Assembly: GCA_016218585.1 (NCBI GenBank)
Contig: JACRDK010000031.1
Coordinates: 1,764-65,763, forward strand
Direction: 5' to 3'
From: Candidatus Doudnabacteria bacterium
Lineage (GTDB): Bacteria > Patescibacteriota > Doudnabacteria > UBA920
DNA length: 64,000 bases
Numbering within the stretch: position 1 is the stretch's first letter; the number at the start of each line of letters is the position of its first letter. Under the pieces are notes generated by a model. The model worked only from the letters and a program-made list of their open reading frames with translations, had not been told where the DNA came from and made no database searches. Made by a program: the position numbers and the translations under genes. Of the stretch, positions 30,695-46,497 are shown one piece after another.

Positions 30695-31468
30695 TTAAAA
30701 AGATTCGCTAAGCCATTTTAGCAACTGCTCAATTTCCCTTTGATTTTTTAAATAATATTTTGCCCGGCTGCCATTTTTCTTCCCGACCCGAATGCTTACC
30801 CCTTGTTTTATTGCTGCAAAAGCGTCTTCATCTGTAGTGTCGTCACCCACATAAATGGGAGCAAATTTTTGCATAAACTTTTTTTGGTAATAATTTAAGC
30901 AAAACAACGCGATTTTCCCCTTATTCCAATTTATATTTGGCCTCAATTCAATTACCATTTTACCGTGGACAACTTTTATATTACCCGTCTTTAAAAACGG
31001 GCCGACAGCTTTTTTAACTTCGCGCTTAAATTTAAAAATAAGCTTTGGGCTTAACAAGCGATAGTGCAAAGACAATGAATATTTTTTATTTTCTAACAAT
31101 GTCCCCGGATAATTTTTTTTAGCCTGTTTAAACCATTGAATAATGGCCGGGAAGCTTTTTACCGCCAAATTTGCTTCGGCAACTATTTCCTTGTTGCCAG
31201 CTATCTTCCACTCCAGGCCATGGTTGCCGGCATAAGACAGAGTGCTTAGCCCGACCTTCTTTTGCACGTCGGCTAAAGCCCGCCCTGAAATTATTGCCGC
31301 CGGAAACCGGCCAGCGCAAGCCCGCAGCTTAACGCGGACAGGCTCGGGTAAAATTGCCAAACCCGGGGTGGGCGCAATGGGGCTTAATGTGCCGTCAAAA
31401 TCCAGCATCAACAAAGGACGCTTTAATTTTCTTTTTATTTCCGGCAAGCAATCAAATACATATTTCAT
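30695..31468 (-). CDS. otsB: Trehalose-6-phosphate phosphatase (HAD-IIB)
   Basis: Motif I LLMLDFDGTLSPI and …IYVGDDTTDEDAF. Immediately downstream of otsA on the same strand. Confidence 0.8.
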   Translation of the reverse strand: MKYVFDCLPEIKRKLKRPLLMLDFDGTLSPIAPTPGLAILPEPVRVKLRACAGRFPAAIISGRALADVQKKVGLSTLSYAGNHGLEWKIAGNKEIVAEANLAVKSFPAIIQWFKQAKKNYPGTLLENKKYSLSLHYRLLSPKLIFKFKREVKKAVGPFLKTGNIKVVHGKMVIELRPNINWNKGKIALFCLNYYQKKFMQKFAPIYVGDDTTDEDAFAAIKQGVSIRVGKKNGSRAKYYLKNQREIEQLLKWLSESF

Positions 31469-31469
31469 T

Positions 31470-33689
31470 TTAACCTAAATTAATAATGGCCCTTAAAAAT
31501 TCCGCCGCCCAACGGTAAATATTATAATTTTTTACCGCCTCGCGCATTTTTTTCATTCGCCTGTGCTGTTCGGCGGCCGGCATAGTAATGGCTTTATAAA
31601 TTGCCTCAGCCGTTTCCTCCGCGCTATAAGGATTTATAATAATTGCGTCTTTCAAATCGCGCGCCGCCCCGGTAAACTGGCTCAACACCAGAACTCCGGC
31701 TTCGTCGTTTCTGGCGGAAACAAACTCCTTAGCCACCAAATTCATACCGTCGTGCAGCGGGGTAACCAAACAAATGTTCGCCGCCCGATATAGCGGAAAA
31801 ATTTCCTCGTGGGTATGATTTTCTTTTAATAAAACTATAGGCTTCCAGCCATTGTTTTCATATTTATTGTTTATCCGCTCCGCTTCGCGAGTTACCTCAG
31901 CGTTAAACTGGCGGTATTTTTCCACTCCTTCGCGGCTCGGCGGGGCAATCTGCACAAAAGTAAACTGCTCTTTATAGGCCGGATACATTTCAAAAAAGAA
32001 CTCCAACCCCTTAAACCGTTCCATAATTCCTTTTGTATAATCCAATCTGTCCACGCCAACGCCTAAAAACTTTGGCTTTAAATCCAATTTTTCTAAAAGT
32101 TCCGACTTGTGCGGCACATCTTCCGCCTCGGTATTGCTAAACGGCACGCTAATAGGAAAGGGTTTTATATACGTAGTGTGGCCTTTGTGGGTAATGGCAA
32201 ATTTTTCCAAATCCGTTAAGGATTCAATTTCCTTGCCCACGGTTTCCAAAAAATTATTGCAATACTGCTGGGTATGAAAGCCTAAAACATCCGCGCCTAA
32301 CATCCCTTCCAAAATTTCCTTGCGCCAGGGGCACACGCTAAAAACTTCCGCATTTGGCCAGGGAATATGCCAAAACATTCCCACTTCCGCGTCGGGGCGG
32401 CTATTTTTTATCATCTCGGGCAGCAGGGCAAAATGATAGTCCTGAATTAAAATAACCGGGCGCTGAACATTTTTTATTTCCGCCAATAGCGCCTGGGCAA
32501 ATTTGCCGTTAACTTTTCGGTACTGCAGCCAATCCTCTTTTCGAAAAATTGGTCTGGTGTGGGCCATGTGGCAAAGCGGCCATAGCGCTTCGTTTGAAAA
32601 TCCAACATAGTGCCCCTGAATTTCTTTTTCATTTAACCAAATTCTCTTTAACGTATATTGGGGTTCTTCCGGAGGAACTTGAATTTTTCCTTCCGCGTCA
32701 GATGTAATTTTATCCGCGCTGCCGGAGCCGTGAGCCAGCCACATGCCGCCGCAGGCCTCCATTATCGGCTCAAGCGCGGTAACCAAACCAGCGGCCGGAA
32801 CCTCCCAGGTTATTTCATTTTTTATTTTAGAATGTATATAAGGCTCGCGGTTGGAAACAACAAAAATTTTTCTTTCTTTAAAATAAGCCTTAAAAAATTC
32901 CTTAAGCCTCTCTGCCGTCCAGGGCGAGTCAATTTTCTCCAGGCGCATTCTCGCCTCCTCGCTAGCAGCGGTTCTAGCCAGCACCAAACTCTGGGACATT
33001 TTTGTTATTTCCGCTACAATCGGCTTAAAAAATCCGTGGCTTTTTTGCATAGCGGAATCTCCACCGGCCTGGCCGCTGCGGGCCTGGCGAATCGCCTCCG
33101 CCATTTTAACTATCGGGGCGTAAATAATCCAGCGCAAAATTAATACCACCGCAATGGCAAACAACAGCGACTGGACCAGCAAACGAAGTAAATTATTTTT
33201 CCAAGTGTCAGATATGCTCGCGTCTATATAATCAGCGCGTTGATATACAACAACGGAACCGATAACTTTTTCGTCCTGATGCAGCGGAGATGCAAGTATA
33301 TAAACTTTGCCCGGCATCTGCGGAGAAAATGCGCCGACCGCGCTGTCGGAATCCATGGATTTTTCCGGAATTTGCGGATCTTCTACTAATTCATTCGGCA
33401 GGCCGGCTGAGACTGCGAATAATTCCCCTTTATTGTCAAACACGGCCAAACCAAGCAGGCGCTCTCTCCCTGCAAATTTGTTCAGCAAACTCTGCAAAGT
33501 TGAGGTCGCTTTCACAACATAAGCGGGACGAATTGACTCCTTGAAACTATCGGCTAACAGTGTGCTGCGCCGCTGCAAGTCATCCATTAACGAAGCCTGC
33601 TGCTGGTGAACTTGGGTGTAAGTAAAACCAATTACCACCAAGCTCACCACAATAACCACAGCAGCAATTGATGCTAGAAGTTGTTTCAT
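31470..33689 (-). CDS. otsA: Trehalose-6-phosphate synthase (GT20) with ~270-aa N-terminal two-TM sensor-like extension
   Basis: GT20 core begins at …RKIFVVSNREPYIHS…AGGLVTALEPIM… (≈470 aa). Before it come a TM helix (IAAVVIVVSLVVIGFTY), a ~140-aa extracytoplasmic segment, a second TM (LLRLLVQSLLFAIAVVLILRWIIYAPIV) and a HAMP-like linker. Confidence 0.85.
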   Translation of the reverse strand: MKQLLASIAAVVIVVSLVVIGFTYTQVHQQQASLMDDLQRRSTLLADSFKESIRPAYVVKATSTLQSLLNKFAGRERLLGLAVFDNKGELFAVSAGLPNELVEDPQIPEKSMDSDSAVGAFSPQMPGKVYILASPLHQDEKVIGSVVVYQRADYIDASISDTWKNNLLRLLVQSLLFAIAVVLILRWIIYAPIVKMAEAIRQARSGQAGGDSAMQKSHGFFKPIVAEITKMSQSLVLARTAASEEARMRLEKIDSPWTAERLKEFFKAYFKERKIFVVSNREPYIHSKIKNEITWEVPAAGLVTALEPIMEACGGMWLAHGSGSADKITSDAEGKIQVPPEEPQYTLKRIWLNEKEIQGHYVGFSNEALWPLCHMAHTRPIFRKEDWLQYRKVNGKFAQALLAEIKNVQRPVILIQDYHFALLPEMIKNSRPDAEVGMFWHIPWPNAEVFSVCPWRKEILEGMLGADVLGFHTQQYCNNFLETVGKEIESLTDLEKFAITHKGHTTYIKPFPISVPFSNTEAEDVPHKSELLEKLDLKPKFLGVGVDRLDYTKGIMERFKGLEFFFEMYPAYKEQFTFVQIAPPSREGVEKYRQFNAEVTREAERINNKYENNGWKPIVLLKENHTHEEIFPLYRAANICLVTPLHDGMNLVAKEFVSARNDEAGVLVLSQFTGAARDLKDAIIINPYSAEETAEAIYKAITMPAAEQHRRMKKMREAVKNYNIYRWAAEFLRAIINLG

Positions 33690-33916
33690 AAAAATTATCT
33701 TTGCTAAAAAAAACGGGCGCAGCCGGCTTTAGTTTTTCCTAAATCCCTGACCACCACCCTGGTAACATTAATTTACTTCCTGCCTCTATTATATCACCCT
33801 GTGGGTAATAAAACAGCTTAATTATTCAAAATTACGCTTAATTATAAGGCTAAAAATTAATTTTGCTTTAATAGTGAGCGAGAAACAAAATTTTTTAAAT
33901 ATGATAAAATCAGTGT

Positions 33917-35179
33917 ATGAAAACATTACTTGCCGTAAATCCGGCAAAGCAGCAGTTCAGGCCTTATCGCCAATTTAATCCGGCTGGATTTAATAAATGC
34001 ATAAACCTGGCCCGGCAGCTTAAAGGCGCTCGGATTATTCATATTAACTCTGCCGCCATAGGCGGCGGGGTGGCGGAATTGTTGAAAAACCAAGTTCCTC
34101 TGGAAAAAAGTTTAGGGGTAAATTCTTCCTGGCTGGTTTTGCAATTGCCAAAACAATTCTTTTTTATTACCAAAAAAATTCACAACCTGCTGCAAGGGCA
34201 AAAAGGCTTTCTTTCTGAACCGGAAAAAAAATACTATACCAATAAACTGGCCAAACCAGGAATGGAACTGCAAAAAATTATTAGTTCATCGCCCCAGCCA
34301 ACTGTTGTAATTTTGCACGACCCGCAAACCCTTCCGCTAATAGACTACTTGCCCGCTTCAGTTTCCACCGTGGTTCGTTTGCACATTGACACATCTTCGG
34401 CAAATAAATCTATGCTTCAAACCCTCAAACCATTTTTAGAAAAAGCCGACAAAGTTATTGTAAGCCACAAACAATACGCTCCTCCGTGGTTGAATAAAAA
34501 AAAGCTGCTGGTAAGCTACCCGGCCATAAGTCCATTTACTTTAAAAAACCACGCCCTAAGCAAAAAACAAATTTTGCAACTCTTCAAACATTTTCGCATA
34601 GATACAACCAGGCCAATAATGGCGCAAATTTCCCGCTTCGACCCCTGGAAAGATCCGGAAGGGGTAATAGAAAGTTATTATCTGGCCAAAAAAACTATTC
34701 CAAAACTGCAGCTGGTTTTAGAAGGAGTAATGGAAGCAAAAGATGACCCGCAGGCCGAAGGAATTTATAACCGGCTAAAAATGGAGCACCAAAACGATCC
34801 CGATATTTTTTTGCACGGGAAAAAAACTCTTTCCGACACTGCATACCAAACCTGGATAAACGCCCTTCAAAGCCAATCGAATGTGATTTTGCAAAAGTCT
34901 TTGCGGGAAGGTTTTGGGCTTACCGTCACCGAAGCCCTGTGGAAGGGCAAGGCGGTAATTGGCGGAAATGCTTTAGGAATTAAGGCGCAAATAAAAAATG
35001 GCCGTAACGGATTTATTGTTAAATCCCCGGCCGAATGCGCTAAACGAGTTATTCAGATTATTCAAAACCCCTCACTGGCTAAAAAATTGGGTGCAGAAGG
35101 TAAAAACACAGTCCGCAAAAATTTTCTGTTTAACCGCTTAATTTTAGACTTTTTAAAACTTTATGCTGAAGTGCTATAA
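33917..35179 (+). CDS. GT4-family glycosyltransferase, possibly trehalose glycosyltransferring synthase (TreT-like)
   Basis: N-terminal INSAAIGGGVAELL and C-terminal GT1/GT4 motif …EGFGLTVTEALWKGKAVIGG. Lies beside the otsA/otsB pair. Confidence 0.55.
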   Translation: MKTLLAVNPAKQQFRPYRQFNPAGFNKCINLARQLKGARIIHINSAAIGGGVAELLKNQVPLEKSLGVNSSWLVLQLPKQFFFITKKIHNLLQGQKGFLSEPEKKYYTNKLAKPGMELQKIISSSPQPTVVILHDPQTLPLIDYLPASVSTVVRLHIDTSSANKSMLQTLKPFLEKADKVIVSHKQYAPPWLNKKKLLVSYPAISPFTLKNHALSKKQILQLFKHFRIDTTRPIMAQISRFDPWKDPEGVIESYYLAKKTIPKLQLVLEGVMEAKDDPQAEGIYNRLKMEHQNDPDIFLHGKKTLSDTAYQTWINALQSQSNVILQKSLREGFGLTVTEALWKGKAVIGGNALGIKAQIKNGRNGFIVKSPAECAKRVIQIIQNPSLAKKLGAEGKNTVRKNFLFNRLILDFLKLYAEVL

Positions 35180-35228: not shown

Positions 35229-36752
35229 TTATTTTCTATGGCCAGCTTGCTTTCTTCTTAGCATAAAATAATTTAGCCAGCCAAAAATTGCAAAAATAAA
35301 CAGGATTGCAATAATAATATTTTCAATAGTAAGTAAGCCGGAAACAAGGGACATTACACCGGCAATTCTGGTCAAGTATGTTTGTTTAACATTTATAATA
35401 ATACGGGCCGACTTTAAATCCGCTACTTCTGCCCACATAACATAGGAACCCAAGGCGGCTATTGGCTCGCTGCGGAAAGAAAAATTACCAAGTTCGTCCG
35501 ATTTCACCACATAAGCCCGGCTAATGCCATCCTCGGTTGTTAATAAAATATTTACTTTTGAATTAGCCGGAGCTTGTCCTTGAGCTTTAATCCTGCCCCC
35601 TTCTTTAATCTCCGCGGAATAATCCTTAATTGCCAAAACCGCTTGTTGTTTAAACTCAATATTGGCTTTGGCGGATGCAAGGTTGCCCGCAAAATCATAG
35701 GCTTCAACTTCCACCAAGTGCATTCCGGAAGAAATGCCTTCCGATAAAATTGAGGCGGAACCGTCTTTAGCCGGAATTTTTATAGCTTCTTGGCCGTCAA
35801 TTTTTACTAAAAAGTAATCAATGCCTGAAAGAGCGTCGTGAGCTGAAATTATCGGCAAGGTCTTGCTGTCACCTTGATTAATTGCCAAACTTTCCGGCGC
35901 CGCGGTATCCACTTGCACTTTATAAGCGGCTGTTTTTGTCCAAGCCCCATTAACTAAAAATCTGGAGTTAAAATACCAGGTACCGTCTTTAATATCTTCA
36001 ACGGCAATAGTGCTCACAGCCGGCTTGCGCAACACCCTGGGCACCGACAACGCTGTGCTGTCAAAGGAAGTTTGGCTGGCGCTTGTCCCCGGCGGCAGCT
36101 TCCACGAAAATATTGCCTTGGTTTGATTGTACCATTTGTTGCTATCCGGATGAGTGGCGGAATAAACCGCGGCTTGCGGCTGGAACTGCGCGCTGGCAGC
36201 GGGAGTGATATTTTTATTTTCCGCATTCTGGTCTCCTGCCTTATTCTCAGGGACAGGGGTATCTTTGGCTTGAACTAAAATAAACTGCGCCTGGCCTTTA
36301 GCTTGCAGCAGCTCGGTCCCTAAACCGTCATTTGCCAATACAGAACCGGAAGAAAAATAAATAGACGCCGACCCTGAAGCTTTAGCGCGAAAGGAAATAG
36401 TTAAAGCCGCGCCCGAAGCTCCGGCGTAGCCGGGAGTTGGAAGGCCGCCGTTAAAAGAAACCGTGCCGGCCTGGTTGGAAAAAGCGGGCTCTTCTACCCA
36501 CAAAGAAAAAATTGACCCGGACTTTGACAGCGAAACCACTTCCAGTAAATCAGTTGGAAAATTAATTACAGCCTGGGAATTATTTATGGGCCTGTTATCT
36601 GTATTTATTAACACCTGAACATTTACTATATTACCGACGGAGACTTCCTTGGTGCTGGGCGAAAAATACAAAGAAGCGGCCTTAGCCGAACCTACGTTCA
36701 GCACAAGGAAGAATAGAGCGGCAATAAATGCTAAAAGAAACTTTTTTTTCAT
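35229..36752 (-). CDS. Cohesin-like domain surface protein with C-terminal TM anchor (paralog of 36755-37675)
   Basis: Signal peptide + cohesin-like beta-sandwich segment (LYFSPSTKEVSVGNIVNVQVLINTDNRPINNSQAVINFPTDLLEVVSLSKSGSIFSLWVEEP…). C-terminal TM + RRKQAGHRK. Start set at MKKKFLL. Confidence 0.55.
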   Translation of the reverse strand: MKKKFLLAFIAALFFLVLNVGSAKAASLYFSPSTKEVSVGNIVNVQVLINTDNRPINNSQAVINFPTDLLEVVSLSKSGSIFSLWVEEPAFSNQAGTVSFNGGLPTPGYAGASGAALTISFRAKASGSASIYFSSGSVLANDGLGTELLQAKGQAQFILVQAKDTPVPENKAGDQNAENKNITPAASAQFQPQAAVYSATHPDSNKWYNQTKAIFSWKLPPGTSASQTSFDSTALSVPRVLRKPAVSTIAVEDIKDGTWYFNSRFLVNGAWTKTAAYKVQVDTAAPESLAINQGDSKTLPIISAHDALSGIDYFLVKIDGQEAIKIPAKDGSASILSEGISSGMHLVEVEAYDFAGNLASAKANIEFKQQAVLAIKDYSAEIKEGGRIKAQGQAPANSKVNILLTTEDGISRAYVVKSDELGNFSFRSEPIAALGSYVMWAEVADLKSARIIINVKQTYLTRIAGVMSLVSGLLTIENIIIAILFIFAIFGWLNYFMLRRKQAGHRK

Positions 36753-36754
36753 GA

Positions 36755-37675
36755 TTAAGCTTTGGAACTTTTTTTCTTTTTGTATTTTATAAAGGTTACT
36801 CCTATTAACAACAAAGATAAAACAATAACAATAAATTGCCAAAGCCCAAAAGATTTTGCTTTTAACTTGGCCGGATCAACAACAATTACGCTGGTATTTC
36901 CGGCTTTGTCAAAAGCCGCAATTTTAACCTGCGACTTCAAAGACTGGTCTTTTAACACGTAAGGGCTTTCACTATTTATTGCCGGCAAATCGCCTTCCTG
37001 AACCTGAAAATAATTTACTCCGGAAGATTGGTCCGCGGATGAAAAACTCAAAAAATATTTGCCGCCAAACATGGAAGAATCCCGTCCCAACGCAACATTT
37101 AAGTTTTCCGGGGGCGTTTTATCGCTAGCTAAAATTTTTGTCCACGCATCGCTTGCCGCCGGCTGTTTCAAACCGGCATTTATGGTAATTTGTTTTGACG
37201 CGGTCGTTAACGTTTCTTTTGTGCCTTTGCCGTCGGCCAGGTAGGCTGAGGAGTCTGGGGAAATATTTATTTCCGCATCTCCTGAAGATTTAGCTAAAAA
37301 GACAATGCTGAGTATTTTACCGTTGCCGCTATTTTGCGTCGTTCCGCCGGTAAAAAATATTTTTCCGCTGTCGTTTGAATACACCGGCGTCCTGGTCCAA
37401 AGATTAAACACAGACCCGCCGGTACTTATATCCCGAACTTCCAATTTACTCGCGTCAAAATTTACCATTCCGTCAACAACATTAATTTTTTCTCCCGCGC
37501 TGTCCAGCCTTAACTCAACCAAAAATTCGTCTCCCGCGTTAAACTCGCGATTTTCTGCAGACAAGGTCAAATTCGCTGCTTCCGCCGCAACAGGCATTAC
37601 AAGCATCATCAACAGAGCAACTATTAAATTTTTATACTTTTGTCCCATATTCATTGTTATTTTTTTGCGGTCCAA
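36755..37675 (-). CDS. Cohesin-like domain surface protein with C-terminal TM anchor
   Basis: Same architecture and clear paralogy (LTLSAENREFNAGDEFLVELRLDSAGEKINVVDGMVNFDASKLEVRDISTGGSVFNLWTRTP…). C-terminal TM LWQFIVIVLSLLLIGVTFI + KYKKKKSSKA. Confidence 0.55.
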   Translation of the reverse strand: MDRKKITMNMGQKYKNLIVALLMMLVMPVAAEAANLTLSAENREFNAGDEFLVELRLDSAGEKINVVDGMVNFDASKLEVRDISTGGSVFNLWTRTPVYSNDSGKIFFTGGTTQNSGNGKILSIVFLAKSSGDAEINISPDSSAYLADGKGTKETLTTASKQITINAGLKQPAASDAWTKILASDKTPPENLNVALGRDSSMFGGKYFLSFSSADQSSGVNYFQVQEGDLPAINSESPYVLKDQSLKSQVKIAAFDKAGNTSVIVVDPAKLKAKSFGLWQFIVIVLSLLLIGVTFIKYKKKKSSKA

Positions 37676-40530
37676 TTATATAACAAAATAGAAAAATCTA
37701 TGGCGTCCACTTTACCGTCTCCGTTAATGTCAACTTTTGGATTGGCAAAAGGCGGCTTAGTTTTCCAATAATAAAGCAAAATAGAAAAATCCACTGCATC
37801 AACTCTGCCATCCTGATTAATATCTGCGGAAAAAATCTTACCTGTGTCTGGATTGGTAGAAGTGGCTGGTGCAGTATATCCTCCACCGCCGCCCCCACCA
37901 CCTCCGCCGGATGGCGGAGTAACAACTGGTTGAGAAGTCGCGGTAAAACTGCGTGAAGCGCCGGATGAATCGGAACCAAAGTAAACAACCAACTTAAAAT
38001 AATAATTCCCGGGGGTCGAAACAGTTGCGGTTAAAGACGTGTCCCAATTCTCTCCGGGCAAAATAAATTTAGCCGCCGAAGCATAAAACACATCATTGCC
38101 GCCGCCGCAGGAATTATTTACTTGGGAAACCACGCACCATTCATAGGTATATTCATAGCCGCTGCTGCCTTCGTTGGTTATGGTTATATTAGCGCTTATA
38201 TCCGGCGTTTGAGTCTGGTTAACCTCACGAATAATTACCTGAGCCGGCGCTCCTTTAACTTCCCAATAATCGGTATTTTCGCTAAACCTGCCATTCTCTA
38301 CTTGCGTGGACACAATTGTTTCCCATGCGCCTTGTGTTGCGCCGCTGGCAACACTATAAACGTACTCGTAAACACCAGTGCTTAAGCGGGTCATGGCCAC
38401 GGCTGAAACAACAACATTTCTGTCGGCATCATAGAGCGTAATTTGCGGCGCGGAATACGGATCGCTTGCGGAATTTGAATTATAAATATAATATTTTACC
38501 CGGTAAGATTTCCCGGTCATAATTGATCCGGTTTCCGACAAAGTTGTAATCCACGCGCCCTGCTGTCCGGTAATTATTCTGCTGCCGTTATTCCACACCG
38601 AACTAGCCACGGTTGAAGTTGATATTCCGGCCACCTGCGCCCCAACGCTTCCGGCTGTGGTAAGAGAAGAAGTCATTACATTCCACACGTCAGCGGCAGT
38701 AATATTGTTGCCGTAGTTTGTGAGTGTTCTGCTGCCATTGCTCCAAACAGCGCTGGCTAAAGAGGAGGTTGAATAATCGGACAACGTTCTGCTAGCCGAA
38801 AGCCAAACATCGGCCGCGGTCAAACTGGAGGTTCCTCGTGAAGAAATGGTTGCGTCTAAATTGTCGGCAATAGTTTTGCCAATGCTGCCGGAAGATGTAA
38901 GGCTGGACTTAGCCACATTCCAAATCGCTAAAGTAGAAGAAGCGGTCAAATCAACCGTGCCTCCCCCGGCGGAAGTTAAAGTCCTGGCACCGTAAGCCCA
39001 AACATCGCTTGCGGAAATATTATTTAAATTATTTATTAGAGTCCTGTTAGCTAAAACTTCGGTAATTATTGAAGATGTAGCATTGTTTACATCTGACTGA
39101 GTAGCTAATGACCCGCCGGAGGTTAATGTCTGGTCGGTTAGCCTCCTCGTGGATGCAAATGTATTATTCCAGACATCGGCAGCCAAAGAGCCAAAGGCGG
39201 TTAACGTGCGGGATCCGCTGGACCACACGGCCGTGGCAATATCCGAAACCAGCGTGCCAAATGATGTTAAAGTCCTTGAAGGAGACAGCCAAATCGCTGA
39301 AGCTATAGACGATGTTGCATAATCTGTTAACGTTCTGCTAGAAGACAACCACACGGCAGAAGCAACGGTTGATGTCGAGACTCCCGCCACTTGAGAACCT
39401 ACGCTCCCGGCGGTTGTAAGGGAAGAAGTTAAAACGTTCCATACATCCGCGGCGGTAATGTCATTTCCATAATTAGTTAACGTTCTGCTGCCCTGGTTCC
39501 AGACCGCAGCGGCAACAGACGAAGTAGCATAATCGGACAAGGTTCTGGAAGCAGACAGCCAAACATCGGCCGCGGTTAAATTAGACGTGCCTCGGGAAGA
39601 AATGTTTGCATTTAAGTTATCAACTAAATGTTTGCCTACTGAACCTAAAGTGGTCAGTGAAGAGCTGGCTACATTCCAAACCTGGCTAGGGTTAGACAAG
39701 GTTACATCTTTAGTGCCATAAGCCCAAACATCGCTTGCGGAAATATTATTTAAATTATTTATTAGAGTCCTGTTAGCTAAAACTTCGGCAACAATTGTAG
39801 ACGTTGCGTTGTCAACATCTGCTTTGGTAGCCAAAGAGCCGCCGCTCTCCAATGTTTGGTCTGTAAGTCTTCTGCTTGGAGCAAAAGTATTATTCCAAAC
39901 ATCGGCCGCTAAAGAGCCAAATGCCGTTAAAGTGCGGCTGCCGCTGGACCAAACGGCCGTTGTAATATCCGAAACCAGTGAACCGAAAGAAGTGAGGGTT
40001 CTTGAGGGAGACAGCCAAACTGCCGTGGCAATGGATGTGGTGCCATAATCAGTTAAACTTCGGGAATTAGAATTCCAAATATCCCCTGCCACCGATGTGG
40101 CGGAGGTCAGCGTTCTGTTGCTGCTATTCCAAACTGAATCGGCTATGGCTGAGTTGTCAACTGTGGTGCTGGAAGCAATTATAAAAGTTTTATTTTCTTT
40201 AATTAAATCTCCGTTAACCTGGCTGCCGCAAGAAATAAAAGTTGGCCAGGTTCCTAAAGTTGTGGAAGCGGTAAATGAATAATAATGCCAACCACTTGCG
40301 TCGCTGGACATTGTCGCAGCATTTATATCCACTGCTCCTGCAGGGGACATAACCGTAAGCGTACAAGGGGTAGTGGTCGGCTGCATATTGTCATCATACA
40401 CAAATTCGCCCAGGGTCACGGATGACCCAGGGGCAAATTGGTCATAAGCAGCCGCGGCTTTAAATGGTCCGGCGGCTGCAAATAACGCAAACAGAACACT
40501 AAAAATCAAAATTAGGCGACCTTGTTTCAT
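37657..40530 (-). CDS. 957-aa secreted repeat protein with C-terminal type-I dockerin pair and poly-Gly linker
   Basis: Signal peptide. About 20 repeats of a ~24-aa unit (…A.AVW.S.SRTLT.YG…). G10 linker. C-terminal DINQDGRVDAVDFSILLYYW…DINGDGKVDAIDFSILLYNW matches two dockerin Ca-binding segments. Confidence 0.8.
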   Translation of the reverse strand: MKQGRLILIFSVLFALFAAAGPFKAAAAYDQFAPGSSVTLGEFVYDDNMQPTTTPCTLTVMSPAGAVDINAATMSSDASGWHYYSFTASTTLGTWPTFISCGSQVNGDLIKENKTFIIASSTTVDNSAIADSVWNSSNRTLTSATSVAGDIWNSNSRSLTDYGTTSIATAVWLSPSRTLTSFGSLVSDITTAVWSSGSRTLTAFGSLAADVWNNTFAPSRRLTDQTLESGGSLATKADVDNATSTIVAEVLANRTLINNLNNISASDVWAYGTKDVTLSNPSQVWNVASSSLTTLGSVGKHLVDNLNANISSRGTSNLTAADVWLSASRTLSDYATSSVAAAVWNQGSRTLTNYGNDITAADVWNVLTSSLTTAGSVGSQVAGVSTSTVASAVWLSSSRTLTDYATSSIASAIWLSPSRTLTSFGTLVSDIATAVWSSGSRTLTAFGSLAADVWNNTFASTRRLTDQTLTSGGSLATQSDVNNATSSIITEVLANRTLINNLNNISASDVWAYGARTLTSAGGGTVDLTASSTLAIWNVAKSSLTSSGSIGKTIADNLDATISSRGTSSLTAADVWLSASRTLSDYSTSSLASAVWSNGSRTLTNYGNNITAADVWNVMTSSLTTAGSVGAQVAGISTSTVASSVWNNGSRIITGQQGAWITTLSETGSIMTGKSYRVKYYIYNSNSASDPYSAPQITLYDADRNVVVSAVAMTRLSTGVYEYVYSVASGATQGAWETIVSTQVENGRFSENTDYWEVKGAPAQVIIREVNQTQTPDISANITITNEGSSGYEYTYEWCVVSQVNNSCGGGNDVFYASAAKFILPGENWDTSLTATVSTPGNYYFKLVVYFGSDSSGASRSFTATSQPVVTPPSGGGGGGGGGGYTAPATSTNPDTGKIFSADINQDGRVDAVDFSILLYYWKTKPPFANPKVDINGDGKVDAIDFSILLYNWTAKK

Positions 40531-40586: not shown

Positions 40587-40766
40587 CTATTTAACTTTTT
40601 TTACATCCGCTACTCCGGTGCTTGCGGATTCGTCCTTAAAAGCTCCGCGCAAATGGCGAATTGCTTCTACTAAGCTTTTCGCTAATTCCGGAATTTTTCT
40701 GGAACCAAACAATAATACAATTACCACGGCAATGATGATAATTTCTTTTGTGCCTAAATCAAACAT
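40587..40766 (-). CDS. tatA: Twin-arginine translocase subunit TatA/E (59 aa; not in supplied ORF track)
   Basis: Hand translation of the minus strand gives MFDLGTKEIIIIAVVIVLLFGSRKIPELAKSLVEAIRHLRGAFKDESASTGVADVKKVK*. TM helix + FG + amphipathic helix is the TatA hallmark. Overlaps the tatC stop by 8 nt. Confidence 0.75.
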   Translation of the reverse strand: MFDLGTKEIIIIAVVIVLLFGSRKIPELAKSLVEAIRHLRGAFKDESASTGVADVKKVK

Positions 40767-41496
40767 ATGCTTTTATACTTTCTTCAGGGCTTTTATATGC
40801 CCTGTTAATAATTAATATTACCTCGTACATAATTAGCAGAGGCAAGGTTAAAATAATTAACGACAAAACATCCGTTGGCGGAAGTAGGGAGACAAAAATA
40901 AAAATAATTACTATGGCGTGGCGTCGCTTCTCTCTTAAAAAGGCAACCGAGAGGACCCCAACCCTAATCAGAAAAGTCGCAACGAGCGGCAATTGAAACA
41001 AAATTCCCAAAAGGGCGCCGGTTAAGGACACTTGCGCAACAAACTTGCCAATGTCCCACATATTGGTAATTCCCAAATCGGTATTAATTTTTGCCAGCGA
41101 GCTTAAAGAAATATAAAGGGTAAAAAAACCGTATGCAAAACCCGAAACAAATAGTAACAGACCTACGGGTAAAAGTTTTAAAAATAACTTTTGTTCTCTG
41201 CTAGTTAAGGCGGACTTTAAAAAAGAATACACTTCATAAATCGCAAACGGCGCCAAAATTATTACTGCGCAAAAAAAACCTATATCCATTGCCAAGTCAA
41301 AATACTGAAACGGCGAAGTTGCGGCAATGGTCACGTTAGCCAACTTAAAAAAACGAATCATCTGGTTAATTATCATGCCGGCGGCAAAAAAACCAATGGC
41401 AAAAACAGCGACAAAACCAATAGCCAGCCGATAAGCTCGGCTGCGCAGATCTTCAAGATATAGTGAAAAATTATCCCATTCTGCTAGCATTTCCAT
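40759..41496 (-). CDS. tatC: Twin-arginine translocase subunit TatC
   Basis: Six-TM protein with TatC motifs (…RLAIGFVAVFAIGFF…, …LLPPTDV…). Confidence 0.85.
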   Translation of the reverse strand: MEMLAEWDNFSLYLEDLRSRAYRLAIGFVAVFAIGFFAAGMIINQMIRFFKLANVTIAATSPFQYFDLAMDIGFFCAVIILAPFAIYEVYSFLKSALTSREQKLFLKLLPVGLLLFVSGFAYGFFTLYISLSSLAKINTDLGITNMWDIGKFVAQVSLTGALLGILFQLPLVATFLIRVGVLSVAFLREKRRHAIVIIFIFVSLLPPTDVLSLIILTLPLLIMYEVILIINRAYKSPEESIKAYV

Positions 41497-42409
41497 TTTT
41501 GTTCTTTAATTTACTTCGGGTTTTTAAACTCAAAACTTCCGGGGTACTGCTGGAAGTTCCCGGATCAACACTTTCCGGAGTGGAAGAGGCACTGGTCGGA
41601 TTTTCAATTGTTGGCGGAGTGGAACTTGCCGCAGGTTCATTTGTTATATTTTCCGCCGGAGTGGAACTCGCATTTTCGGTTGGACTTGCAGTTGTTTCTG
41701 GCAGGGTTTCGGGAGTGCTGGAGCTCTGCGTTGCTGCAGAATTTTCTACTGTTGGAACAGGCGCAGGAACAGGTTCTTTTTGCGCTGAATTTATTCGGTG
41801 TTTATTTAACCAATCCGCCACTGCATTAACGCCTTCTGCCCAGGAACTGTAAGTTCTGGTGGAGGAACCGGTATTGCCAACATTGCCGGGATTAAAAGTG
41901 TTTACGGCTACTCCGGCAGTTCCAAACCGCGAGTCCAGCTCTATTATAGCCATCATCAATCTAACATCCACAGAATATTTTTGCGCCGAGTTTAAAAACA
42001 TTTCACCGGTAAGCGGGCTGCTTATGGCCTCGCTGTCTATGTAGGCATTAATTGCTTCCTGCGTGTCCATACTGCCAATATAATGCAAAATGTCGGCAAT
42101 TTTTTGCTCGTGTAATGGGTCTGACGCGTAAGTGCTAATATCATAATTATTCAAACAGTCAGTGGAGCCGTTTGAGACAACAACAGGTTGGATAGTCATC
42201 GCCTCTACTAGAGTGCTGTTAGTGGCAGCAGCGGCCTGCGCCGCGGTTTGCAATAAATTCAGTTTGGACAAAGTATCCTGCACGCCCATTACTTCCGCGT
42301 CTAAAGTATTTATTCTTTCCAAATCGCCCGCGTTAAAAGCCTGGTCTTTGGCCAGAAGCAAAGCCTGCAAACGATTCTGCAACAATTGTATTAAGTATTC
42401 AACGTTCAT
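41471..42409 (-). CDS. GH73-like N-acetylglucosaminidase-domain protein (FlgJ/LytD-type) with N-terminal coiled coil and C-terminal S/T/P-rich tail
   Basis: LMMAIIELDSRFGTAG…NPGNVGNTGS…YSSWAEGVNAVADWL parallels the glucosaminidase consensus (AQAALESGWG…NLFGIK…YSS..eAl.DY..LL). No signal peptide. Confidence 0.55.
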   Translation of the reverse strand: MNVEYLIQLLQNRLQALLLAKDQAFNAGDLERINTLDAEVMGVQDTLSKLNLLQTAAQAAAATNSTLVEAMTIQPVVVSNGSTDCLNNYDISTYASDPLHEQKIADILHYIGSMDTQEAINAYIDSEAISSPLTGEMFLNSAQKYSVDVRLMMAIIELDSRFGTAGVAVNTFNPGNVGNTGSSTRTYSSWAEGVNAVADWLNKHRINSAQKEPVPAPVPTVENSAATQSSSTPETLPETTASPTENASSTPAENITNEPAASSTPPTIENPTSASSTPESVDPGTSSSTPEVLSLKTRSKLKNKNGNASRMG

Positions 42410-42415
42410 AAATTT

Positions 42416-45235
42416 TTAGAAAATTATAGTCCGCCACATTTCCGCGCCGGTATGGCGCATAATGTACAAATAATCCAAGCCGTCTGCCGTGGTAATTATT
42501 TCCATGCGATTGCCAATAATGGCCGTGCTCATACCGTAAGGCACCATACCAAAGGTGGATATGGTATTGGTAGTTACATCGTAAGCAAAAATTCTTCCTG
42601 TTGCGTCTTTGGTAAAATAAACCGTATTAATGCCGTCATAAGCGTACATAGAACCGGTGGTCAAAGTTTCCGTTTGCGGTGAAAGCATATTGCCATAATC
42701 AAACTTTTCAAAAATCACATCGTACCTGTCCGCGGTGTTAGACGCACCACCTCTTGGCAGAACCATATAGCGCCCATTGGATGCGCCCCCAAACAGCCAG
42801 ACCAATTGCATGCCAGCGCCTCTGGCTGGAATACCCAAAATTGTATAAACCGTGGTAGTGTCCGGCGCCAAACCGGTAACGGCGCCAAAAGTCAAAACCG
42901 TTGCGGTATTTGAAGTAATTAAAATTTCCTGGCCTTGGCCTGCTCCGGCAATAATTTTTAATCTTTTACCGGCCCATTGGTTTGTTGCCCAGGCCTTGTC
43001 AGCGCAAGTGAGCGTGGTGGTAGAACCCGCCCCGGTACAAGTTCCAAAAGAATCCTGAATGGAATAATGAGTTGTTGAATCAGGCGTAAAACTTTGGGTG
43101 GAATAAGTTAAGGTTGTGGCAGTGTTGGAAATGATCGTAACTTCCGTGTCTCTGCCGGTGCCGGACATAATTCTAAATTTATAAGCAGCCCATTGGTTAG
43201 TTATCCAATTTTTGCTTGAGTCCACCAAAGTGGTCGTGCTTCCGCCTGAAGCATGGCCTTCCTGTCCTCTGTCAAACCTTTTTACCTGGTCATCACGCCC
43301 AAAAGCCGCGGTGTCGGTAATAACATAACGGCCGGTGCCGTTAACCGGAGCCGTTGTAATAGTGGCAAAAGTTAAAGTTGTTGCCGTGTTTGCGGTAATT
43401 CTTCTGGCGAGCATTGCGCCGGTAACGCCAACCAAATGCGTCTGAACAATTTTTCCTACGTGCTCATTAACAGTCCAATTTTTTGTTGAGTCTACAAGCT
43501 GGGTGGCAGACTGAGAATTTGCCGCGGTCATATTAGAGGCAGCCGAGGTCGCAATATCAAAAGCCGTGAGCGCGTCGCAACCAATTATAGTAGCAGAGCC
43601 GGCATAGTTTGCATCGCCTGACAAAGTTACTGAATCGCCAATTTTAAAATAATGGTTTATGGCTGTGGTCACATAACAAACTACCCCGGTTGAGGTAATC
43701 TCAATAGTGCAGCCGCTGCCTGTGCCTCCGGTCGTTGCCTTTCCCGTGCCGGTAGTATAAGTGGCTCCGGCACGCAATAAAGAAACTGTTTCGACAAGCC
43801 CGCCTGGAGATGTTGTTTCAACAATTACTTTTCCGTTAGTGCCGCCAGTGCTAATAGTTAAAATATCACCCACCAGATAGTTTGTGCCTTTAGCTGTTGG
43901 TACGGCATTTACACCTGTAATTCCTCCTGTGTTTCTTACGCCGCTGGTAATAGCTATGAGCGACTGCTCCAAACCGGCCAGGGTGGCGGCCATGTTACAG
44001 GCAATTCCGTCTTCGTATTTTGCGGCAAAAATTGGCAGGTCAGAGTCTACGTCGTACTGATACATGGCCGACGCAGCACCGCCTGCAATATAATATTTGT
44101 CTTTATCCGCCAAAATTTCATAAACGCTGGTATTGTCCGGGGCAATATCAAATTTTCTGGCAACTTCAAAATAATTTGTTCCGGAACAAATTATTCTTCT
44201 GGCTTGTCCAATGCCTGTTCCATCTGTTATTCTAATTCGATAATTACGATATTGGTCAACAGTTAAAGTTTGCGTGCTGTCAGTTAACCGATAACTTGTC
44301 CCCGCTGAAGCCGTGCCCGTTAAAAACACCCCGCCTATTTCCCCTGTTCTTTCTATGGTCACGTCAGTCCCCAAAGCAGCAAGCAGCATATTTTGGGAGC
44401 AAGTTTTGGTATTCCAATAATCTCCGGCAACATCGTAATACTGCAAAGTGTAAAATGGGGTTGCGGCGGCCGAGGAAATTAAAACAATACCGCCTGATTC
44501 AATATTGAATCTGGAAGTATAGTCCGGCGCGGTTGTCCAGTTGCTGTCTACTGTAATATCGGAGGCTTCAATAATAAAATGAGTTTGCGAACCGGCGGTA
44601 GTTATTGGAGCTGTGGCAAAACCGGTATTATTCCACGGGTCTAAAGCTTGATGGTTAGTATCGGCAAAATACAGTGTGGTTGCATCGTTGTAAACAATTT
44701 TTCTTAGTTGAGTTTGCCCTGTAGAAAATGACAGCCTACACTGATATCCTGCCCACTGATTAAATTTCCATTTCTTGGTGGAATCGCCAATAGTTGTAGC
44801 GGAAGCCGTTGTAGCTAAACCCTGTTCGTAATTTACCGACTCAGTCATCGCTGTAATAGTTCTTATTTGGCCCGTACCAGCGCCGGCATAAATTTTTATT
44901 CTTTTATTTATAAAAAGTCTGCCATTCATCCCGGCAATTCTTAAAGTATTAACTGCCGGGGCGGAAATTACCCTGCCCCTGTTGCCCCCATATTTAGCAA
45001 AACGCATTGAAGCCACGCCGGAAACTGCCGTAGGTGGAGAGGCTAATTGTTGCCAAGCATCATACCAAGTGTCATAACGGTAAAAAGTAGCTCCGGTCAG
45101 GTAATACATAAACCTATCCAGGCCGTCTTCTTGAGTCGTTAAACAGGCCGCGGCGGCAGTGTTAGTCGGGGCAAACCGACACCATTCCCATACCGGCAAA
45201 TCTACTTGTTTTTTTAATTTGTTTGTAAAAGACAT
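42416..45235 (-). CDS. 939-aa repeat protein (Thr/Gly-rich, recurrent ~45-aa module D-S-T-K-x-W-x-x-N-Q-W-A-G…I-T-S-N-T-A-T-T-L-T-F); fibre/beta-helix-like, function unknown
   Basis: At least 5 copies of the module (e.g. LVDSSKNWITNQWAAYKFRIMSGTGRDTEVTIISNTATTLTY). No signal peptide seen. Confidence 0.55.
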   Translation of the reverse strand: MSFTNKLKKQVDLPVWEWCRFAPTNTAAAACLTTQEDGLDRFMYYLTGATFYRYDTWYDAWQQLASPPTAVSGVASMRFAKYGGNRGRVISAPAVNTLRIAGMNGRLFINKRIKIYAGAGTGQIRTITAMTESVNYEQGLATTASATTIGDSTKKWKFNQWAGYQCRLSFSTGQTQLRKIVYNDATTLYFADTNHQALDPWNNTGFATAPITTAGSQTHFIIEASDITVDSNWTTAPDYTSRFNIESGGIVLISSAAATPFYTLQYYDVAGDYWNTKTCSQNMLLAALGTDVTIERTGEIGGVFLTGTASAGTSYRLTDSTQTLTVDQYRNYRIRITDGTGIGQARRIICSGTNYFEVARKFDIAPDNTSVYEILADKDKYYIAGGAASAMYQYDVDSDLPIFAAKYEDGIACNMAATLAGLEQSLIAITSGVRNTGGITGVNAVPTAKGTNYLVGDILTISTGGTNGKVIVETTSPGGLVETVSLLRAGATYTTGTGKATTGGTGSGCTIEITSTGVVCYVTTAINHYFKIGDSVTLSGDANYAGSATIIGCDALTAFDIATSAASNMTAANSQSATQLVDSTKNWTVNEHVGKIVQTHLVGVTGAMLARRITANTATTLTFATITTAPVNGTGRYVITDTAAFGRDDQVKRFDRGQEGHASGGSTTTLVDSSKNWITNQWAAYKFRIMSGTGRDTEVTIISNTATTLTYSTQSFTPDSTTHYSIQDSFGTCTGAGSTTTLTCADKAWATNQWAGKRLKIIAGAGQGQEILITSNTATVLTFGAVTGLAPDTTTVYTILGIPARGAGMQLVWLFGGASNGRYMVLPRGGASNTADRYDVIFEKFDYGNMLSPQTETLTTGSMYAYDGINTVYFTKDATGRIFAYDVTTNTISTFGMVPYGMSTAIIGNRMEIITTADGLDYLYIMRHTGAEMWRTIIF

Positions 45236-45236
45236 A

Positions 45237-45983
45237 TTATGACCAAATTAAATTATTTCTCACTCCGTTGGCGTAAGCATTTCTTGCGGTATCAATATGC
45301 AAATATCTTCCGTCAACTCCGCCCAAAGCTACCAGGTTGGTGGCGGAAGTAACCGTAGAAACAGTTCCTACTGTGGTAACCGTGCTTAAAGTTAAAGAAC
45401 CGGTAATTGAATCTATGGTTATTTTTTGCCTTTGTGCAGAGTCTACCACGCCCAAAGAATCCACCTGCCTAATAATTCTTCTCAGCAAAATTGTACTGTC
45501 TTCTGTTGCCGGATTAATTTGCGTAGCCGTAGTGTCATTTACCGTAACCGCGCTGCCTGCCCCGGAAGAAGCGGTTAATAATTTTCCACTGCCGTCAAAT
45601 GTGAATTTATCGGAATTTGCTTTTACCGCCAATAAGGTTGTTTCTGATGCTCTAGTGGCCAAAGTTGCCTCCGAAGCTTTGGCTGCGAGAGTTGTTTCTG
45701 TGGCAGGGTCAATCCTCAAATTTGTCGAATCTTTTATCCCAACAACTCCGGCGGAAGGAGTGCCGCCCATAACCAAAGCCTCAGCTTTTTTTGGCATTAA
45801 AGCTGACATAATTAAACCGGCGCCGCCAATTCCGGCCATGCGCAAAAACATTCTCTTTTTCGCATCTGCCACTTGCCCTTCTGCTTTAACAGGTTCATTT
45901 AGCCCATGCACGACCGGCAGCGCTGTTGTGCTGACAATCTTTGGCGGCGGCGATAAATATTTGTAATGCAAGTTTTGTTTCAA
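45237..45983 (-). CDS. Hypothetical exported protein with KR-type Tat-like/Sec signal and ETTL-type repeats
   Basis: …KKRMFLRMAGIGGAGLIMSALMPKKAEA|LV resembles a signal peptide with an AxA cleavage site. Repeated TETTLAAKASEATLATRASETTLLAVKA. True start may be the internal M at 45851. Confidence 0.5.
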   Translation of the reverse strand: MKQNLHYKYLSPPPKIVSTTALPVVHGLNEPVKAEGQVADAKKRMFLRMAGIGGAGLIMSALMPKKAEALVMGGTPSAGVVGIKDSTNLRIDPATETTLAAKASEATLATRASETTLLAVKANSDKFTFDGSGKLLTASSGAGSAVTVNDTTATQINPATEDSTILLRRIIRQVDSLGVVDSAQRQKITIDSITGSLTLSTVTTVGTVSTVTSATNLVALGGVDGRYLHIDTARNAYANGVRNNLIWS

Positions 45984-46398: not shown

Positions 46399-46497
46399 CT
46401 TAAGCGCATTATGCAAAGAATAAGCATATCAAAAAAAATAAGCTCAAACTTTTTAAAGTCTGAGCTTCGAGAGCTTCTCTATATTATTAAATTGCAC

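Follow-up and report, generated by a model that had tools for sequence, protein, structure and literature searches.

What could two membrane-anchored cohesin proteins and a secreted dockerin protein, encoded as neighbours by one of the Patescibacteria (the candidate phyla radiation), serve for if not for a cellulosome? The question is raised by a 64,000-nt stretch of DNA from a Candidatus Doudnabacteria bacterium (GenBank assembly GCA_016218585.1, contig JACRDK010000031.1, positions 1,764 to 65,763 of the forward strand; hereafter the window), in which three minus-strand genes are transcribed in the order Doc957, CohA, CohB. The trio probably represents a non-cellulosomal cohesin-dockerin module of the cell surface, encoded by an operon conserved across Patescibacteria, with a non-enzymatic cargo that most likely forms an adhesive or spacing fibril. 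An earlier reading, made from the letters and without database searches (the sequence-only reading), had placed three open reading frames here, and all three are present at its coordinates on the minus strand. It had also described the dockerin gene as the next gene after the two cohesin genes; the adjacency holds, but Doc957 is the first gene transcribed. The genes and their predicted parts, with positions counted along the window and model confidence given as the predicted local distance difference test (pLDDT) of AlphaFold2, are as follows.

37657..40530, minus strand: Doc957, a predicted secreted, dockerin-tagged repeat protein of 957 residues, the cargo (open reading frame).
40450..40530, minus strand: predicted Sec-type signal peptide of Doc957, residues 1-27, MKQGRLILIFSVLFALFAAAGPFKAAAA, cleaved before Y (hydropathy 2.11 over residues 6-24).
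40171..40449, minus strand: predicted N-terminal beta-sandwich of Doc957, residues ~28-120 (AlphaFold2 pLDDT ~90, all-beta).
38578..40158, minus strand: repeat region of Doc957, residues ~125-651, about 530 residues (17 motif matches).
37936..38574, minus strand: predicted tandem beta-sandwich pair of Doc957, residues 653-865, one MG2-like and a second immunoglobulin (Ig)-like (AlphaFold2 pLDDT 85-95).
37879..37908, minus strand: G10 linker of Doc957, residues 875-884 (direct sequence reading; low pLDDT over residues 872-899).
37660..37833, minus strand: predicted dockerin of Doc957, residues ~900-957, two segments of calcium loop plus helix (Pfam, phmmer, AlphaFold2).
36755..37654, minus strand: CohA, 299 residues from ATG, with predicted signal peptide, cohesin, Ig-like domain and C-terminal transmembrane anchor (open reading frame).
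37175..37576, minus strand: predicted cohesin domain of CohA, residues ~27-160 (Pfam, AlphaFold2, Foldseek).
36875..37123, minus strand: predicted Ig-like stalk domain of CohA, residues ~178-260 (alignment A1; all-beta, pLDDT >90).
36788..36844, minus strand: predicted C-terminal transmembrane helix of CohA, residues 271-289, then a basic tail KYKKKKSSKA (hydropathy 2.57; AlphaFold2 helix 271-298).
35229..36752, minus strand: CohB, 507 residues, with predicted signal peptide, divergent cohesin, several Ig-like domains and C-terminal transmembrane anchor (open reading frame).
36243..36677, minus strand: cohesin-like domain of CohB, residues ~26-170 (37% identity to CohA).
35664..35810, minus strand: predicted Big_13 Ig-like domain of CohB, residues 315-363 (Pfam Big_13, 27.3 bits against a cut-off of 27).
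35283..35339, minus strand: predicted C-terminal transmembrane helix of CohB, residues 472-490, then a basic tail (hydropathy 2.46).

Within the trio, the stop codon of one gene and the start of the next are separated by 2 nt at each junction. The most likely start of CohA is the ATG at 37654 (299 residues), and the TTG at 37675 (306 residues) is less likely, because the former agrees with a 100% identical database protein (P0001). CohA is 100% identical to HY918_05790 of a Candidatus Doudnabacteria metagenome-assembled genome, as is Doc957 to P0121 (HY918_05795) of the same genome. The hydropathy profile of Doc957 contains a single hydrophobic segment, located at the N-terminus, and those of CohA and CohB contain an N-terminal signal-like segment and a C-terminal transmembrane segment followed by a basic tail. 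The window holds one dockerin and two cohesins. Promoter and terminator scans of the window gave counts not above those of shuffled sequence, so that the operon boundaries are drawn from gene spacing alone; one terminator-like hairpin lies at 46467..46440, upstream of the gene string to which the trio belongs.

The C-terminus of Doc957 is, to judge by its sequence, a canonical type I dockerin, for which calcium binding is predicted. The Pfam Dockerin_1 model (PF00404) matches residues 902-949 with E 1.2e-10 and 41.8 bits, well above its cut-off of 22.9. Two segments, DINQDGRVDAVD followed by FSILLYYW and DINGDGKVDAID followed by FSILLYNW, fit the loop D-x-N-x-D-G-x-x-D-x-x-D and the helix that comes after it, and they are the sole matches to the dockerin-loop pattern in the six-frame translation of the window (open reading frames >100 residues). 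With 20 residues each, the segments are identical at 16 positions, and in the DNA they are visible as a duplication spaced 93 nt. In known type I dockerins, high internal symmetry permits two binding orientations. The C-terminal 73 residues matched solved type I dockerins in a phmmer search (E 3e-5 to 1e-3), including 4fl4_A, 2yik, 1daq and 2vn5_B (E 3e-5 to 8e-4), and in the AlphaFold2 model residues 900-955 reached a pLDDT of 83-91, with helices at 912-920 and 943-955, one after each loop. The DxNxDG segments are therefore modelled confidently, each loop with its helix behind it. The GC-type dockerin model of NCBIfam (NF041540) remained below its cut-off (18.7 bits against 29). The helix motif DFSILLxxW is kept across 61 distinct dockerins of related loci. 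The dockerin is preceded by ten glycines, and the description of a secreted 957-residue repeat protein that ends in two dockerin segments behind such a linker is borne out by Pfam, by the sequence and by hydropathy.

The N-terminal module of CohA is a cohesin according to its sequence and its modelled beta-sandwich, whose fold matches solved cohesins, a family defined by a nine-stranded jelly-roll. Pfam Cohesin (PF00963) recognises it with E 5e-8 and 33.7 bits, above the cut-off of 24.1. The AlphaFold2 model, built from a 24-sequence alignment, has a mean pLDDT of 88.8, and when it was compared with the PDB by Foldseek, the best 50 matches were all cohesins (E down to 6e-9, template modelling score (TM-score) 0.6-0.82). 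The highest TM-score belonged to 2vo8 from Clostridium perfringens, a non-cellulosomal cohesin (0.82), 2xdh from Archaeoglobus fulgidus, likewise non-cellulosomal, reached 0.78, and OlpA and OlpC, anchoring proteins of Clostridium thermocellum with a single cohesin, are also among the matches. The entries 2vn5 and 2vn6 are found among the structure and sequence matches of the searches with the CohA cohesin and the Doc957 dockerin. Alignment A1 shows family-invariant motifs in both parts of the protein, GGSxFxLW and LxDGxGT in the cohesin and DKTPPE, SPYVLKDQSL and DKAGN in the stalk. The stalks behind the cohesins are of the OmpL47 type or Big_13 Ig-like, one in CohA and several in CohB; the NCBIfam OmpL47-type match to the CohA stalk has E 1.7e-5 and is below cut-off.

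CohB is best described, from its sequence, as a divergent cohesin paralogue. Over its first 149 residues it shares 37% identity with CohA (E 4e-20), and Pfam Cohesin matched 8 of 15 N-terminal cohesin-region sequences, namely those of 14 orthologues and of the window's own protein taken together (best E 1.1e-9). A sequence search of solved structures with CohB returned nothing. The picture of two tandem paralogues, each with a signal peptide, a cohesin-like sandwich and a transmembrane segment, agrees with this identity and with the hydropathy profiles.

The module is widespread and conserved in the phylum and is no peculiarity of one genome. A scan of GTDB species representatives provided 80 loci, and the domain census covered 85; upstream counts refer to the 64 loci with at least 1.5 kb of upstream sequence, and downstream counts to the 76 loci with enough sequence downstream. 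A dockerin gene was present upstream of CohA on the same strand in 60/64 loci, directly adjoining it in 38, separated from it by one gene of ~340-410 residues in 21 and by a 481-nt gap in one. Immediately downstream of CohA, a CohB-type gene was found in 73/76 loci, so that the same triad recurs in related genomes. The reading frames of dockerin and cohesin genes often overlap or nearly abut, and metagenome contigs have the same gene order. The CohA family is large and well defined, composed of proteins of ~300 residues. Searched with its profile, 1.84 billion proteins yielded 3,497 representatives of clusters formed at 50% identity with E<=1e-30, and 7,791 when the threshold was E<=1e-10. Many of those record titles that are informative refer to lineages of Patescibacteria, namely Doudna-, Kaiser-, Nomura-, Adler-, Staskawicz-, Azam-, Campbell- and Taylorbacteria, Paceibacteria and Minisyncoccia; about one third are titled uncultured Candidatus Saccharibacteria, which are also Patescibacteria, and others only 'bacterium'. 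One of the Minisyncoccia loci (L049) is that of Ca. Microsyncoccus archaeolyticus PMX.50, from a cultivated lineage of archaeal parasites, which thus possesses the trio as well.

Some further observations were made on these loci. About a dozen are titled as other phyla, mostly Gammaproteobacteria, and also Nitrospira, Acidimicrobiales and Deferribacteres (L009-L011, L014, L019, L020, L050, L063, L077, L084, L085); their clusters are typical Patescibacteria-type trios, and the contigs are probably mislabelled or mis-binned parts of metagenome-assembled genomes. Among the relatives of CohA, representative-library matches (P0241-P0253, P0261, P0265) comprise apparent CohA-CohB fusions of 700-970 residues with two matched stretches, and giant proteins of 2,183-4,269 residues with 10-31 copies of the CohA Ig-like stalk domain. 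In one distant locus (L003, 5711-9013, plus strand), WxLIP_PGBD (DUF916-like) proteins are encoded directly upstream of the dockerin gene, and ftsZ comes after CohB. The WxLIP_PGBD domain is known from WxL cell-surface-complex loci of Firmicutes.

In the protein encoded upstream of CohA, the dockerin is the constant part and the cargo the variable one. The dockerin of Doc957 is recognisable in 73 of the 85 loci, its MG2-like domain in 20, its repeats in 14 and its N-terminal domain in 11. The cargo reading frames range from 105 to 2223 residues across the loci, and the homologues of Doc957 from about 640 to 1450. The cargo encoded on a Nomurabacteria chromosome (L062) consists of a cysteine-rich DUF4215 region, a Big_6 Ig domain and a dockerin, and no enzyme domain was present in the cargo proteins of related loci where these were checked. 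Likewise, no catalytic domain was found in Doc957 by Pfam, NCBIfam or PHROGs. Its tandem beta-sandwich region has many invariant columns (alignment A2) and matches Pfam MG2 at E 4.6e-6, below cut-off. In Foldseek comparisons, the modelled beta-sandwiches resemble the Vibrio matrix protein RbmA, MG domains of alpha-2-macroglobulin and complement, and extender repeats of adhesins; the whole model gave generic tandem matches to Ig and fibronectin type III (FnIII) domains with low TM-scores, from which no specific function can be read, because half of the model is of low confidence.

The repeat region of Doc957 is built of ~17 units of ~20 residues with the core VWxxxSRTLT, grouped as two super-repeats of ~250 residues. 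The super-repeats are 79% identical in amino acids and 73-81% in nucleotides, with a period of 726-756 nt; Tandem Repeats Finder found nothing in the gene, as is expected from a super-repeat period above 500 nt. No family in Pfam, NCBIfam or PHROGs matched the region, and its AlphaFold2 model has a pLDDT mostly below 50, with short stretches up to ~65. A comparable build is reportedly found in the 'periscope proteins' of Whelan et al. (2021, PNAS), which sit on the surface of Gram-positive bacteria and have a repeat stalk of variable length. As in Doc957, the length of periscope proteins varies between relatives through near-identical tandem repeats. They are, however, covalently attached by sortase, whereas the attachment of Doc957 would be non-covalent through its dockerin.

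A different kind of protein occurs in sister clusters. In the Nomurabacteria locus mentioned above, a protein of ~250 residues, encoded two genes downstream of CohB (L062:11523-12269, plus strand), combines a cohesin and a dockerin in one chain behind an N-terminal hydrophobic segment (Dockerin_1 25.3 bits; Cohesin E 0.001). Its equivalents are present in ~25 Paceibacteria-type loci (e.g. L021, L026, L027, L034), whose clusters hold three cohesins and two dockerins together with conserved genes of about 320, 385, 220 and 590 residues. Such a protein would be an adaptor-like or self-linking element.

The display mechanism that we propose would begin with export of Doc957, CohA and CohB by the Sec pathway. 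CohA and CohB would be kept in the cytoplasmic membrane by their C-terminal transmembrane helices, as type I membrane proteins, and an Ig-like stalk would keep the single N-terminal cohesin of each at a distance from the membrane, the stalk of CohA being short and that of CohB longer. Doc957 would be freed from the membrane once its signal peptide is cleaved, and would then be captured non-covalently, when its calcium-binding, internally symmetric dockerin docks on one of the cohesins. It is the conserved adjacency of the genes (60/64 and 73/76 loci) that points to this binding, and which cohesin the dockerin would choose is likewise a supposition. The G10 linker, presumably flexible, would set the dockerin apart from the rest of Doc957 and give it freedom of orientation. 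What is displayed would be a long non-enzymatic protein made of beta-sandwiches and a repeat region of variable length, most likely a fibril that provides adhesion or spacing at the surface of an episymbiotic bacterium. A role in adhesion or contact is favoured because constant anchors are combined with a cargo that differs from lineage to lineage, and because cultivated Patescibacteria live attached to host cells (PMC10633639, PMC10936435). The sequence-only reading had spoken of a membrane-anchored scaffold with cargo. The anchors and the cargo are upheld by the gene order, but 'scaffold' is not appropriate, since CohA and CohB carry a single cohesin each and thus resemble anchoring proteins rather than multi-cohesin scaffoldins.

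The trio stands at the end of a dense string of minus-strand genes with spacings of -26 to +56 nt, in the order small multi-transmembrane protein, p248, a 939-residue protein (p939), GH73-like protein, TatC, TatA, Doc957, CohA, CohB. Four of the neighbours have recognisable features.

45237..45983, minus strand: p248, with a predicted signal of the twin-arginine translocation (Tat) type, KRMFLR, a G/A-rich h-region and a basic PKKAEA c-region (direct reading, homologues).
41471..42409, minus strand: GH73-like glucosaminidase-domain protein, 312 residues (Pfam Glucosaminidase, 30.3 bits against a cut-off of 30.2, borderline).
40759..41496, minus strand: TatC (Pfam TatC, E 1.8e-41).
40587..40766, minus strand: TatA (open reading frame read directly).

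The absence of any glycoside hydrolase nearby, as assumed earlier, does not hold in view of the GH73-like gene, which lies three genes upstream of Doc957 and overlaps the start of tatC by 26 nt with its 3' end. Its product has a coiled-coil-like N-terminus and an S/T/P-rich tail, and possesses neither a signal peptide nor a dockerin. The gene is syntenic in L001, L009 and L018 and was found in 3/85 loci, and the linkage of TatC to the trio, in 5/85 loci, is clade-specific. In L001, L006, L018 and a JGI contig, the nearest relatives, the block of large protein, GH73-like protein, TatC and TatA also precedes the trio, and it is missing from most other loci. The signals of Doc957, CohA and CohB are short and of the Sec type, without RR or KR-x-FLK, and that of Doc957 has no twin-arginine motif. 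In the homologues of p248, the motif is kept as KRAFLK, KRLFLK, KRFLLK and once as RRLFLK, a true RR (L009); these homologues are located divergently beside dockerin genes in five other loci (L009, L014, L017, L023, L036). p248 is probably a dedicated Tat substrate linked to the surface module, as its signal and homologues suggest; a sequence search of solved structures with it returned nothing. p939 (42416-45235, minus strand) starts 1 nt after the stop of p248 and has no signal peptide, no transmembrane segment and no Pfam or PHROG match, with one chance-level match to a PDB sequence (E 0.26). That it is co-exported with p248 as a 'hitchhiker' is pure speculation.

Other genes of the window were noted as well. 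A TreT-type trehalose synthase gene (33917-35179) lies downstream of the trio and convergent to it, and is accompanied by an OtsA-like GT20 gene (31470-33689), with an N-terminal membrane- or sensor-like extension, and an OtsB phosphatase gene (30695-31468), so that two routes of trehalose synthesis stand side by side (30695-35179) in a small-genome bacterium. These genes look unrelated to the trio. Two giant predicted surface proteins are encoded on the minus strand, one of 1,908 residues with He_PIG Ig domains and a C-terminal LysM (1632-7358) and one of 2,356 residues with a Calx-beta domain (52804-59874), and neither contains a dockerin or a cohesin. Scanning the window for tRNA genes and Rfam families gave no match.

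Several points weigh against the proposed display of an adhesive fibril. CohB of the window has no Pfam Cohesin match at E<=1, and the CohB-type domain profile matched cohesins among solved structures weakly (E 0.09-0.7), which is why its assignment leans on paralogy and on the Pfam matches of the orthologues. Two different anchors for one dockerin are left without explanation, further dockerins or cohesins may lie elsewhere in the genome, and 'fibril' is a guess, since the repeat region is not confidently modelled. Near-universal anchors could equally mean a housekeeping role in the envelope instead of host contact, and because they are so widespread, this is the strongest alternative. The same tethering would then serve envelope architecture, either as a spacer of the wall or S-layer or as an organiser of wall remodelling, together with the GH73-like enzyme and the Tat genes. 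It would agree with the breadth of the CohA family (the 3,497 clusters at the stricter threshold), with the occurrence of the trio in almost every locus examined and in many Patescibacteria classes, with the gene string shared with a peptidoglycan-hydrolase-like gene and TatCA in the window's clade, and with ftsZ adjoining the trio in L003. However, a variable cargo on constant anchors is more in line with recognition or adaptation than with an unchanging structural part, the Tat and GH73 linkage is confined to the closest relatives, and the GH73-like protein has no dockerin and no signal peptide. A housekeeping function is therefore rated as unlikely, although clearly ahead of the remaining alternatives. 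Going beyond the display of a fibril, the CohA/CohB pair may be a phylum-wide envelope 'socket' for lineage-specific dockerin-tagged proteins, in which the cohesin-plus-dockerin protein of Paceibacteria-type clusters extends or branches the assembly and the fast-evolving cargo is a main determinant of host attachment and range; this broader version is doubtful at present.

It is less probable still that the cohesins and the dockerin are real and yet not mutual partners, the dockerin being a calcium-dependent stabiliser, a glycan binder or the partner of another cohesin, and the cohesins binding some other ligand. Many non-cellulosomal dockerins and cohesins are reportedly without a known partner, as Peer et al. 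surveyed them (2009, FEMS Microbiol Lett), the essential dockerin-domain protein SEML1_0315 of Southlakia, described below, stands without a cohesin neighbour, and CohB of the window is too divergent for the Pfam model. Such non-pairing is nevertheless difficult to reconcile with the position of the dockerin gene beside cohesin genes on the same strand in 94% of the loci with enough sequence, with the conserved DFSILLxxW helix motif, or with the single chains of the Paceibacteria-type clusters that unite both modules, as expected for modules that interact; it is mainly this adjacency of 94-96%, together with the cohesin-plus-dockerin proteins, that makes it unlikely. A cellulosome-like complex, which would recruit dockerin-bearing hydrolases encoded elsewhere in the genome for the degradation of polysaccharides or host cell walls, is very improbable. 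It is from cellulosomes and amylosomes that cohesins and dockerins are best known, a GH73-like gene lies close by, and dockerin-containing giant proteins of Omnitrophota have been proposed to act in cell-wall degradation, but every defining feature of such a complex that can be tested here is lacking. The sole dockerin in 64 kb sits on Doc957, which has no catalytic domain, the cargo of related loci has no enzyme domain where checked, and there is no multi-cohesin scaffoldin, no carbohydrate-binding module and no SLH domain, with one cohesin per anchor. Attachment by SLH domains or sortase is not indicated either, as there was no SLH match and no conserved LPXTG in alignment A1, and the C-termini are a plain transmembrane segment with a basic tail. 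The same trio across the phylum suggests non-enzymatic surface display and not a cellulose-degrading machine. A prophage or a phage-derived, tail-fibre-like region is hardly conceivable: the large repeat-rich proteins, the signal-less glucosaminidase-domain protein and the ATExTL-type repeats of p248 loosely recall fibre and lysin genes, but the window has no integrase and no tRNA, and the trio is chromosomal, syntenic across many species and located beside housekeeping genes. A phage origin was rejected on the lack of any PHROG match at E<=0.001 for Doc957, p939, p248, the GH73-like protein and CohB.

The known systems closest to the trio include OlpA and OlpC of Clostridium thermocellum (PDB 3ul4, 4dh2), which bind type I dockerins. 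They belong to the best matches of the CohA fold, and in them one cohesin per surface-anchored protein directly captures a secreted, dockerin-tagged protein. There, however, the wall anchor is an SLH domain and the cargo consists of cellulosomal enzymes, whereas the trio has a C-terminal transmembrane helix, a non-enzymatic cargo and a family-specific Ig-like stalk. Cohesins and dockerins also act outside plant-cell-wall degradation in the glycosidase toxins of C. perfringens (PDB 2vo8, 2jh2, 2ozn) and occur in A. fulgidus (PDB 2xdh), where their function is unknown. The C. perfringens modules link secreted enzymes to each other, and neither organism has a conserved operon of two membrane-anchored cohesins and a variable dockerin-tagged structural protein. 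The amylosome of Ruminococcus bromii is another cohesin-dockerin assembly beyond cellulose, but, unlike the trio, it is an enzyme complex of GH13 amylases (PMC4611034). Within the same phylum, the Saccharibacterium Southlakia epibionticum possesses SEML1_0315, an essential envelope protein of similar build, large and secreted, with Ig/FnIII-like domains and a dockerin, for which a part in adhesion to the host or in the targeting of glycans was proposed; its gene stands alone between hydrolase and tRNA genes and has no cohesin neighbours, and a cohesin partner was not discussed (PMC10633639). This stand-alone gene was the only mention of a Patescibacteria dockerin found in our literature search, which brought up no paper on a Patescibacteria operon that combines a dockerin protein with CohA and CohB. 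Neither Pfam nor NCBIfam contains a curated family for full-length CohA or CohB, and the public records of the trio proteins are mostly named 'hypothetical', at best 'cohesin domain-containing' or 'dockerin type I domain-containing', which makes the system currently invisible in annotations. Cohesin and dockerin modules as such are known, and the trio differs by the transmembrane anchoring, the paired single-cohesin anchors, the variable non-enzymatic cargo and the phylum-wide conservation.

Summarizing, the module will be no surprise for cellulosome specialists, and its value lies in a concrete candidate, open to testing, in a field that is still poorly understood, the surface biology of the candidate phyla radiation, whose attachment to hosts is largely unknown, type IV pili aside. 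The trio is a widespread and easily recognised operon that offers concrete, clonable candidates for attachment or envelope organisation, and the calcium-dependent binding of cohesin and dockerin, as the key step, can be addressed with small recombinant domains. If the doubtful 'socket' version were true, cohesin-dockerin chemistry would be a general device for cell-cell contact and not an organiser of enzymes. The proposed display by itself would extend cohesin-dockerin biology to non-enzymatic proteins of the cell surface, held by a transmembrane anchoring that cellulosomes do not use.

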